Positions 13,829 through 14,010 are shown, numbered from the stretch's first letter. The stretch is 64,000 nt of DNA from Eledone cirrhosa (GCA_964016885.1 OZ024745.1:96658001-96722000), one strand, 5' to 3'. A program made the numbers and translations. Notes: generated by a model from the sequence alone, not told the origin.

Positions 13829-14010
13829 TTAATAGAGATGAGATTCTACAGGACTAGAACTGTTTCATTCTTTAGAAATCATCAGGAATCATAAAGAATG
13901 AAACAGTTCTAGTCCTGTAGAATCTCATCTATATTAAAACTTTTATACTCTGCAATGTATTGAGTACCTTACTTACTGTGGTTACCTCCGATTCAACCCG
14001 GAATGACGTA

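Follow-up and report, generated by a model that had tools for sequence, protein, structure and literature searches.

How Penelope-like retroelements (PLEs) integrate is largely unexplained. Their insertions appear as tandem and inverted copies with an optional tail on one side, and one in vitro study of a lizard element, published in 2024, has tied this tail to two starts of reverse transcription. The protein of the Poseidon element PAc of Anolis carolinensis cleaves and extends both DNA strands (Frangieh et al. 2024, Mob DNA 15:12, PMC11167929). Its reverse transcriptase (RT) initiates inside the RNA, where an 'AC-rich stem loop' approximately 110 nucleotides (nt) past the hammerhead contains two neighboring start sites; these sites are positioned 111-118 nt into the open reading frame (ORF), which itself begins in the hammerhead, and the tail is the stretch between them (PMC11167929). 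The Poseidon protein was predicted to be a dimer, and the hammerhead was dispensable in vitro (PMC11167929). Here, PLE insertions in (TA)n repeats of the octopus Eledone cirrhosa are described, many of whose tails open with a small hairpin. They were analyzed in a stretch of 64,000 nt (GCA_964016885.1, OZ024745.1:96658001-96722000; this whole stretch is referred to as the window, and positions count from its first letter) and in a sample of the source genome, which has a size of 3.0 Gb and is rich in (TA)n.

The original prediction, made from the window without knowledge of its origin, held that a YACTC...GAGTRCT hairpin just outside each palindrome is a cis signal fixing where reverse transcription or endonuclease nicking starts. 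The host elements proved to be PLEs, as it had supposed, and the motif is a covarying hairpin at the boundary of two alternative element ends. The insertions share one anatomy with two possible ends, a covarying hairpin lies 3' of each end, and the tail is confined to one arm. The hairpin is interpreted as a conserved RNA stem-loop opening the PLE tail, which likely marks, and as a site bound by the RT is predicted to set, the upstream one of two internal starts of reverse transcription. The probability of this reading is estimated at roughly 60%.

Hairpins at palindrome boundaries in the window

The motif at 13946-13968 (plus strand) reads TACTC-TGCAATGTATT-GAGTACC and belongs to an insertion of family C. 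Its TACTC/GAGTA stem, followed by CC, folds with -3.6 kcal/mol (z -1.57) and matches the covariance model R1 described below with 36.8 bits. It is located 5 nt 3' of a 115-nt palindrome at 13826-13940 (also delimited as 13818-13947), which consists of an inverted and a direct arm and whose left edge directly abuts a (TA)n run. After the motif, 44 bases follow before the next (TA)n at 14013, and the tail, counted from the no-tail boundary to this (TA)n, spans 13941-14012, with ends that were defined without the motif (clusters 17 and 15). The same layout of (TA)n, inverted arm, direct arm, motif, 40-70 bases and (TA)n is found at all eight places of the window, where the motif lies 0-13 nt past the palindrome and the (TA)n run 63-98 nt further downstream. 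All eight sites listed in the original prediction were present as written, and each follows a palindrome and precedes (TA)n.

Further plus-strand hairpins of this type were located in families B, D, A and A2. In family B, a palindrome at 30667-30996 is followed by a hairpin at 31003-31031 (TACTC 31003/GAGTGCT 31025), which has an inner stem CAGT/ACTG and a 2-nt bulge, within a tail at 30997-31089 whose ends were again defined independently of the motif (clusters 74 and 41). This also applies to the family D tail at 36263-36342 (clusters 6 and 3), which adjoins a palindrome at 36170-36268 (also delimited as 36161-36275) and contains a hairpin at 36270-36297 (CACTC 36270/GAGTACT 36291) that is predicted by folding and matched by R1. 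The family A palindrome at 37591-37915 harbors a hammerhead-like core, CTGATGAG...GAAA, at about 37822-37858 of its direct arm, for which no Rfam hammerhead match was obtained; its hairpin at 37915-37939 (TACTC 37915/GAGTGCT 37933; z -2.07; R1 38.1 bits) opens a tail at 37911-38002. In family A2 both the hairpin (26574-26596; TACTC 26574/GAGTGCT 26590; R1 35.2 bits) and the tail (26574-26664) begin at the same base. The family F insertion lies on the minus strand, with a palindrome at 37519-37573, a hairpin at 37468-37507 (GGTTC 37507/GAGCCCT 37472) and a tail at 37431-37516. The predicted covarying variant on this strand was thereby recovered: most copies of the family carry GGCTC..GAGCC, and the GGTTC of the window forms one G-U pair.

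Two places deviate from the common structure. The family E insertion has a palindrome at 7414-7676 (also delimited as 7406-7676) and a tail at 7677-7773 on the plus strand, and its motif at 7677-7730 consists of AACTC at 7677 and, after a 42-nt interval, TCGAGTGCT (GAGTGCT at 7724). The minimum free energy (MFE) fold does not contain the proposed stem (z +0.71), and the claim of a hairpin at 7677/7724 was not upheld. An A2-like family is represented by a plus-strand palindrome at 21549-21891, inside a wider match at 21350-22088, and a tail at 21892-21962. This tail retains only the 3' arm TTGAGTGCT at 21894-21902 (with the lone GAGTGCT at 21896), lacks the 5' arm and matches R1 weakly (18.5 bits).

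The pattern NACTC-N5-45-GAGTRCY yielded nine matches at eight distinct places of the window, compared with 2.66 +/- 1.94 (maximum 10) in 200 Markov simulations. By itself the window count is a weak case, and the strength of the evidence comes from the wider genome sample. Two of these eight places (27959, plus strand; 13321, minus strand) are located outside PLE tails, in repeats resembling tRNA-derived short interspersed nuclear elements (SINEs).

Insertion ends in the genome sample

The sample comprised 116 stretches of 10 kb across the genome and the window, 1.22 Mb in total. Element ends were defined by two approaches that were blind to the motif: 1857 flanks of (TA)n runs of at least six units were clustered where similarity reaches the TA boundary, and palindromes were identified by self-comparison of the sample. 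Family boundaries follow from simple clustering, and the 18 family representatives were chosen by the authors, as one real copy each.

The first approach revealed pairs of clusters in which one ends, without a tail, where its partner continues for another 36-95 nt. Three of the 14 pairs inspected were artefacts of interrupted TA runs; the other 11 represent nine families, six of which (D, C, A, A2, B and F) have the motif at the start of the extra piece. The no-tail end, which is the tail start, lies 0-17 nt upstream of the stem, mostly 2-8 nt, so that the expected short distance between inversion boundary and hairpin was observed but not a fixed one. The tails measure 63-98 nt. In family H the tail (L042, 8131-8196; L081, 6278-6350; L numbers denote sampled loci) begins with ATCGG..CGAT and the CTC/GAG hairpin is absent, and family J (L077, 7777-8218) and cluster 19 (L100, 7787-8196; L134, 7745-7835) keep ACTC and an inner stem GTGT/ACAC in the absence of the GAG arm. 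These three tails may show how the signal can change or vanish. A 45-nt piece between two TA runs at 36054-36098 of the window matches only the last part of the family R tail and contains no hairpin; it is an insertion cut off inside that tail.

Self-comparison yielded 252 palindromes. In 53 of them, one end abuts (TA)n and the opposite end carries a tail of 11-130 nt. N-CTC..GAG-N' occurs within the first 22 nt of 25 of the 51 palindrome-defined tails of at least 30 nt (11 of 29 clusters), compared with 2.6% of shuffled tails, which corresponds to an enrichment of about 19-fold. Many of the 18 tail clusters lacking the motif are low-complexity sequences or other repeats.

The covariance model R1 has 33 positions and seven pairs. 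When 16 hairpins were aligned with MAFFT, the GAG arms were aligned and the CTC arms were not, because loop lengths differ; a subset of eight site-1 hairpins with similar loop lengths was therefore used as the seed. In 834 kb, R1 matched 48 times at E<=1, and 36 of these matches precede a TA run at a distance of 55-115 nt, whereas such a run follows 4.1% of 20,000 random positions. A hold-out of 390 kb, previously unused, contained 29 matches, 22 of which precede a TA run at this distance. Altogether 77 copies were detected in 1.22 Mb, and 58 are followed by the TA run; the remaining matches are mostly tails before another microsatellite or leaders of full-length copies. Both the model search and the enrichment in tails speak for a motif that is real. 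A reverse-strand control for the motif was dropped because NCTC..GAGN is its own reverse complement.

Hairpin design and evidence for pairing

Among the 18 representatives a common design was recognized: an outer stem N-CTC/GAG-N', a variable inner stem, a loop, a bulge and then N-CT. The core of the proposed YACTC...GAGTRCT motif is therefore retained together with its unpaired ..CT, which is present two bases past the stem in 13 of 18, whereas the outermost Y and R pair in just 10 of 18. The inner stem comprises 3-6 pairs directly inside the outer stem, and its sequence varies between families (CAGA/TCTG, CAA/TTG, TGC/GTA, TAC/GTA, TATTC/GAATA, GTCC/GGAC, TGCTCT/AGAGTA, TGCTC/GAGCA and CGGAGT/ACTTCG). 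A 2-nt bulge on the 3' side (T followed by C, T or A) occurs in 13 of 18, and the loops span 3-38 nt, differing in length and sequence as had been noticed.

Pairing is maintained despite this variation. The inner stems form 57 pairs in total, compared with 25.9 +/- 4.5 when the loops were shuffled (57 was reached in 0 of 2000 shuffles). The fourth outer pair is A-T in 11, G-C in six and G-T in one of the representatives, and with anchors that do not demand pairing it is formed in nine of nine clusters (eight A-T, one G-C). RNAfold includes the outer stem in the MFE structure of 16 of the 18, the exceptions being family E at 7677 and family G, where it appears in the centroid only; z-scores range from +0.71 to -3.63, with 17 of 18 negative and eight at or below -2. 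In the R1-fitted alignment (48 matches, 44 distinct rows) 98% of cells pair, and changes on both sides were observed at four of seven pairs in 37 cells, compared with 8.6 +/- 2.3 after shuffling (0 of 500). Sliding the partner column by 1-3 positions reduced pairing to 11-50%. G-U wobbles (nine) outnumber A-C mismatches (two), which favors the sense RNA as the folded strand.

A second hairpin of a different kind, TTGTTG..CAACAA, occurs within the tail in families A, A2, B and N (37960-37990, 26620-26645 and 31060-31080 of the window; L087, about 2040-2065). The family B version, TTATTG..CAATAA, represents a change on both sides. The tails of families G and R share CATACCGCCTACGG instead.

Tails on one arm only

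A palindrome adjoins 26 of the 77 R1 matches, and the hairpin is absent from the opposite end in all 26, as expected from the claim that the inverted arm never includes the motif. Of these hairpin-less ends, 23 abut (TA)n and three abut another simple repeat. With family-specific probes, the head-to-head pairs of families C, D and B were classified as 18 tailed/tail-less, one tail-less on both sides and none tailed on both sides. By our own arithmetic the chance of at least 18 mixed pairs among 19 is about 4e-5 at p = 0.5, independent choice capping mixed pairs at half.

Nine outward-facing pairs of R1 matches occur within 6 kb, and two of them were inspected as candidates for palindromes with a tail on both sides. 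In L102 (9565/9687) this was rejected, since a short tailed inverted arm lies beside the leader of a long forward copy and the hairpin is internal; in L104 (25/556) the matches belong to two separate insertions with unrelated DNA between them. Judged from the match sequences, at least six of the other seven appear to join different families; the pair in L112 was left unclassified.

The palindromes of family D have a near-constant length, 10 of 14 measuring 111-129 nt (e.g. window 36161-36275; L031, 5175-5297; L045, 8050-8165), so that both arms terminate at a constant point close to the GTCGAAAC core. Such a fixed stop is expected if both cDNAs reach a defined 5' end of the RNA, perhaps one produced by ribozyme cleavage.

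Twin hairpins in full-length units

In full-length units, the hammerhead-like core is followed by site 1 with hairpin 1 and, after about 60-70 nt, by site 2 with hairpin 2, the ATG and an ORF of 742-758 amino acids; hairpin 1 and the tail are thus part of the 5' leader. The forward copy in L053 has its core at 389-425, the no-tail boundary at about 487, hairpin 1 at 491-515, a tail reaching to about 572 and the ATG at 638. Hairpin 2 of this copy, TATAAAT-AGCTC-CTTTAATGTT-GAGCACT, shares the design of hairpin 1 with G-C as its fourth pair. The tail of inserted copies ends precisely where the stretch before hairpin 2 starts (…CCCTTTGCT, then TATA…), and the distance from hairpin 1 to hairpin 2, 91-95 nt, equals the tail length. 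Among 30 family A loci, R1 matched at hairpin 1 in 20 and at hairpin 2 in 22, with 17 loci matched at both; both places were also matched in the two intact A2 copies. Of 30 family C loci, 15 carry ATTTT-AGCAC-TCTCT-GTGCC-CC directly behind the tail end (…GGAATAACGTAC), and four more have paired variants there. The middle pair of this hairpin is flipped from T-A to A-T, and it folds with -5.1 kcal/mol (z -3.63). In this family, 5-6 nt separate the end from the hairpin at site 1, and the gap at site 2 measures 6-9 nt. Thus, in the three autonomous families for which hairpin 2 was analyzed (A, A2 and C), both alternative element ends are positioned a few nt 5' of a hairpin of the same design.

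Inserted copies end beside (TA)n either at site 1, without a tail, or at site 2, with a tail. Two intact full-length A2 copies end tail-less at site 1 against (TA)n. Some full-length copies start at site 2, right after (TA)n or unrelated DNA (L165/L212, with L212 216-290; L198, L199 and L203), and the copy in L204 starts at site 1, which indicates that both sites also act as 5' boundaries of the unit.

Identity of the elements

The elements are PLE insertions in (TA)n. Two PLE characteristics, a 5'-truncated direct copy with an adjacent inverted copy that is likewise 5'-truncated (seven palindromes in the window, 53 in 1.22 Mb) and a tail at one end only (26 of 26 palindromes, and the head-to-head pairs of families C, D and B), were observed. 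They are abundant: candidate copies of the family A tail number at least 2876 genome-wide, the N-terminal 148 residues of the L053 ORF gave 13,026 candidate matches, many in open frames of 742-761 amino acids, and family C gave 9,856 candidates with frames of 758 amino acids. The ORF in L053 contains an RT-like stretch with YRDD, and IYKC..YIGAT near its end. Intact ORFs of 742 and 713-758 amino acids were found, in which YRDD and IIY..YVG boxes were read by eye; likewise by eye, and in place of a reference alignment, the interval from IIY to YVG was seen to hold one cysteine, with a CNCx5Cx5C cluster lying upstream. A Pfam search with two intact ORFs gave no hit at threshold, the GIY-YIG domain reaching E 0.012 and 16.3 bits (cut-off 22.6) in the ORF of family C alone. 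In the ESM Atlas, the nearest clusters, taken as a lead only, are eukaryotic proteins of about 700-870 amino acids with GIY-YIG, RVT_1, HTH_animal and DUF8422 (scores 0.95-0.98).

According to the part of Craig et al. (2021, MBE 38:5005, PMC8557442) drawn on here, PLEs of the Hydra clade are short, have a single ORF, insert into (TA)n and possess one cysteine between GIY and YIG. The elements of E. cirrhosa resemble them in being short and single-ORF, in a putative C-terminal GIY-YIG region that by eye has one inner cysteine and in their insertion into (TA)n, which is the preferred target judging from both tail ends and R1 matches. Within PLEs, the Hydra clade thus appears to fit best, as the elements are short with a single ORF, target (TA)n and seem to encode an endonuclease without two inner cysteines. 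They also agree with PLEs as portrayed in that part of the paper (PMC8557442) in their hammerhead-like cores, tandem and inverted insertions and one-sided tail.

CTGATGA..GAAA cores were recognized by reading in families A, B and C. The 7-17 nt spacer described for hammerheads is present in family C, and in family A the spacer is 26 nt. Rfam hammerhead models did not match at the gathering threshold in the window, nor at E<=10 in the 181 bases of 37740-37920. These models miss the CUGAUGA..GAAA cores, and Rfam-based screens would therefore overlook them. Of the designation of the families as hammerhead-bearing, the CUGAUGA...GAAA pattern stands and a match to an Rfam hammerhead does not; the designation is based on this pattern alone, and the cores are putative ribozymes.

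Comparison with described systems

As in PAc, the one-sided tail of the octopus elements is the stretch between two alternative ends, which were found as pairs in nine families. The sites likewise follow the hammerhead, about 90-110 nt beyond its core, and fall within the leader or the beginning of the ORF of the next tandem unit. A stem-loop is located at the start site, presumed as such in the octopus, and both DNA strands appear to be used. However, PAc belongs to another PLE clade and shares no sequence likeness. The tail is 63-98 nt long here, compared with 30-40 nt in PAc; the ends lie a few nt 5' of the stem here but inside the loop in PAc, and here both sites bear a hairpin of the same design. 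Moreover, PAc was assayed in vitro, whereas the octopus sites are known from sequence alone. A tail length of 30-40 bp is also given for PLEs in the consulted part of Craig et al. (PMC8557442). Neither 'hairpin' nor 'stem-loop' occurs in the text of that paper, so the CTC/GAG motif is undescribed there. A literature search, with the older PLE papers outside its reach, returned only Frangieh et al. (PMC11167929) as bearing on the motif. The order of ribozyme-like core, about 90 nt, site 1, tail and site 2 is common to PAc and the octopus elements, the sequences being unrelated.

In 'stringent' long interspersed nuclear elements and their SINEs, such as UnaL2 of eel, and in the 3' untranslated region of R2, a 3' stem-loop is recognized by the RT. 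It is positioned 5' of the start, and each new insertion carries a copy of it. The PLE hairpin resembles it as a small conserved RNA structure by the start of target-primed reverse transcription that is common to autonomous and short non-coding elements, but the hairpin used would lie 3' of the start and be left out of the copy. The complete signal would therefore be regained only in tandem with a downstream partial unit. In telomerase RNA, initiation is internal and occurs at a place set by an adjacent, enzyme-bound, template-flanking structure. The proposed role of the PLE hairpin parallels this internal initiation placed by an adjacent enzyme-bound RNA structure; PLEs have no repeated short template, and the parallel drawn is one of arrangement. 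PLE RTs are sister to TERT according to the part of Craig et al. used here (PMC8557442).

Weighing of alternative explanations

Several findings weigh against a role of the hairpin as a start signal bound by the RT. The hairpin is weak by itself (-2 to -12 kcal/mol), single z-scores are modest, and family E at 7677 misfolds. The covariation is partly biased, since formation of the fourth pair was a condition of the search pattern, the model itself shaped the alignment, and related copies make up many of its rows. Nor is the hairpin universal, as three of the nine families with paired ends (H, J and cluster 19) have tails without it. The distance between boundary and stem is variable (0-17 nt) and blurred, both hairpins being preceded by TA-rich bases that resemble the target; microhomology priming on TA alone could therefore place the ends. 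The letters of the Poseidon PAc stem-loop, taken in file order from Fig. S1B, contain no CTC/GAG motif, and its loop is AC-rich. In families A and F the probe count gave three tailed/tail-less pairs and five pairs without a tail on either side. Most of these no-tail calls are mis-calls, the following bases being the tail start (e.g. ATAAATAT in 13 of 22 family F calls), and the count was set aside because the short probes missed diverged tails. Finally, CTC/GAG and the unpaired 3' ..CT are invariant or nearly so, and sequence-specific recognition, that of DNA included, would fit this equally.

The last point leads to the possibility that the GIY-YIG endonuclease recognizes the motif in duplex DNA, as a site directing nicking to the adjacent TA-rich bases, for instance during insertion into existing copies to form tandem arrays. 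The near-invariant and partly unpaired letters, the retention of ACTC without the GAG arm in family J and cluster 19, and the requirement of the Drosophila virilis Penelope endonuclease for tail sequence in recognizing plasmid targets, as stated in the part of Frangieh et al. consulted (PMC11167929), would all be explained. A protein reading DNA would not account for inner stems that differ in sequence and stay paired (57 pairs against 25.9 expected), for the alternation of the fourth pair between A-T and G-C or for the excess of G-U wobbles over A-C mismatches (nine and two). Furthermore, most insertions are found in plain (TA)n, a target without the motif, and this explanation is considered unlikely. 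Alternatively, the hairpin may act as a stop, where the cDNA always starts at the tail end and folds back, and the self-copied strand halts at the hairpin to give a tail-less inverted arm. Near-equal palindrome arms around a single center and a tail on one arm in 26 of 26 cases agree with this. Yet lone tail-less ends have no palindrome partner (four in family C, three in D and two in B), the two intact full-length A2 copies are tail-less at (TA)n, and the short tailed arms beside long forward copies in L053 and L102 do not resemble a simple fold-back. The two Poseidon start sites were also mapped directly in vitro (PMC11167929). A stop function is distinctly improbable.

It is also conceivable that the hairpins are leader elements of the mRNA, involved in translation, stability or promoter activity, and that ends occur beside them only because TA-rich bases anneal to the target. 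Both hairpins are indeed located at most about 150 nt upstream of the ATG, and both sites are U/A-rich. Little credence can be given to this explanation, as short non-coding families without a nearby ORF retain the hairpin (family D accounts for 14 of 51 tails) and other internal TA-rich stretches are unused; TATATATA of the hammerhead-like core, for example, is never an end in the family A loci. That the hairpin has no function, and that its likeness reflects common ancestry of related tails or chance, is hardly credible. The elements form one group in which further pieces recur between tails (CATACCGCCTACGG in families G and R; TTGTTG..CAACAA in A, A2, B and N), and the window count is only nine against 2.7 expected, but the surroundings of the motif have diverged past alignment while the stem is kept with changes on both sides, and the enrichment over shuffled tails is about 19-fold.

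Proposed insertion mechanism

For the preferred reading, a hairpin that marks and helps to place the start of reverse transcription, the following course is proposed. By analogy with PAc, the RT/endonuclease would bind the hairpin on a read-through RNA, and nicked TA-repeat DNA would prime synthesis on the U/A-rich bases that immediately precede it. The hairpin engaged would lie 3' of the start and remain uncopied. A start at site 2 would leave hairpin 1 and the tail in the new copy, and a start at site 1 neither of them. A usable 3' signal would therefore need the leader of a downstream partial unit, which fits the tandem (pseudo-LTR; long terminal repeat) habit of these elements. As head-to-head insertions always combine a tailed and a tail-less arm, two enzyme molecules, forming a dimer, probably start on one RNA, with one molecule per hairpin and one per DNA strand. 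Synthesis of both cDNAs would proceed to one common 5' end of the RNA, and the palindrome arms would thereby be equal in length. In its full form, in which twin hairpins serve as start signals for a dimeric RT-endonuclease that places one protomer on each hairpin and primes both strands of the TA repeat at once, the model is offered tentatively and may well be wrong.

Other features of the window

The SINE-like repeats at 27959-27982 (plus strand) and 13300-13321 (minus strand) carry in their conserved core a 6-bp hairpin, TACTCA..TGAGTA followed by CC, with the same letters as the PLE stem. No palindrome or TA run adjoins the hairpins at 27959 and 13321, and R1 does not match them at E<=1. 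The likeness is probably coincidental; borrowing of the PLE signal by the SINE is a lesser reading. A 70-nt hairpin of perfect type at 56439-56511 (CCAGTACTCTTTCATATTATG..) contains GAGTACT in its arms. TA runs do not flank it, and it does not represent a PLE; a miniature inverted-repeat element is a candidate identity. The longest open frame of the window encodes 1174 amino acids (57452-60973, minus strand). Low-complexity arrays occupy two tracts of about 4 kb (22000-26000 and 40000-44000) and yield long spurious open frames; the GC skew of these tracts is extreme and opposite in sign, at about -0.8 and +0.8. Rfam gave no match at the gathering score in the whole window, and among the matches listed at E<=10 there were only microsatellite-driven microRNA look-alikes. 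Sequence records listed as containing the stretch comprised contigs of one study and no RNA run.

Implications for PLE integration

The genome of E. cirrhosa provides evidence that is complementary to the in vitro work on the lizard element, as a single small covarying hairpin at site 1 is common to thousands of insertions, which represent at least a dozen diverged families. A second hairpin of the same design after site 2 (A, A2 and C) and the strict restriction of the tail to one arm add to this evidence. The outcome is a defined RNA element of about 25-40 nt and a concrete model for PLE insertion structure with two starts on one RNA. In combination with (TA)n, the motif is a marker of element ends that are usually missed by repeat annotators. 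If the twin-hairpin dimer model is true, the one-sided tail and the head-to-head palindrome would be the direct footprint of a dimer, and the obligatory tandem state of PLEs would be explained by the hairpin used never being copied.

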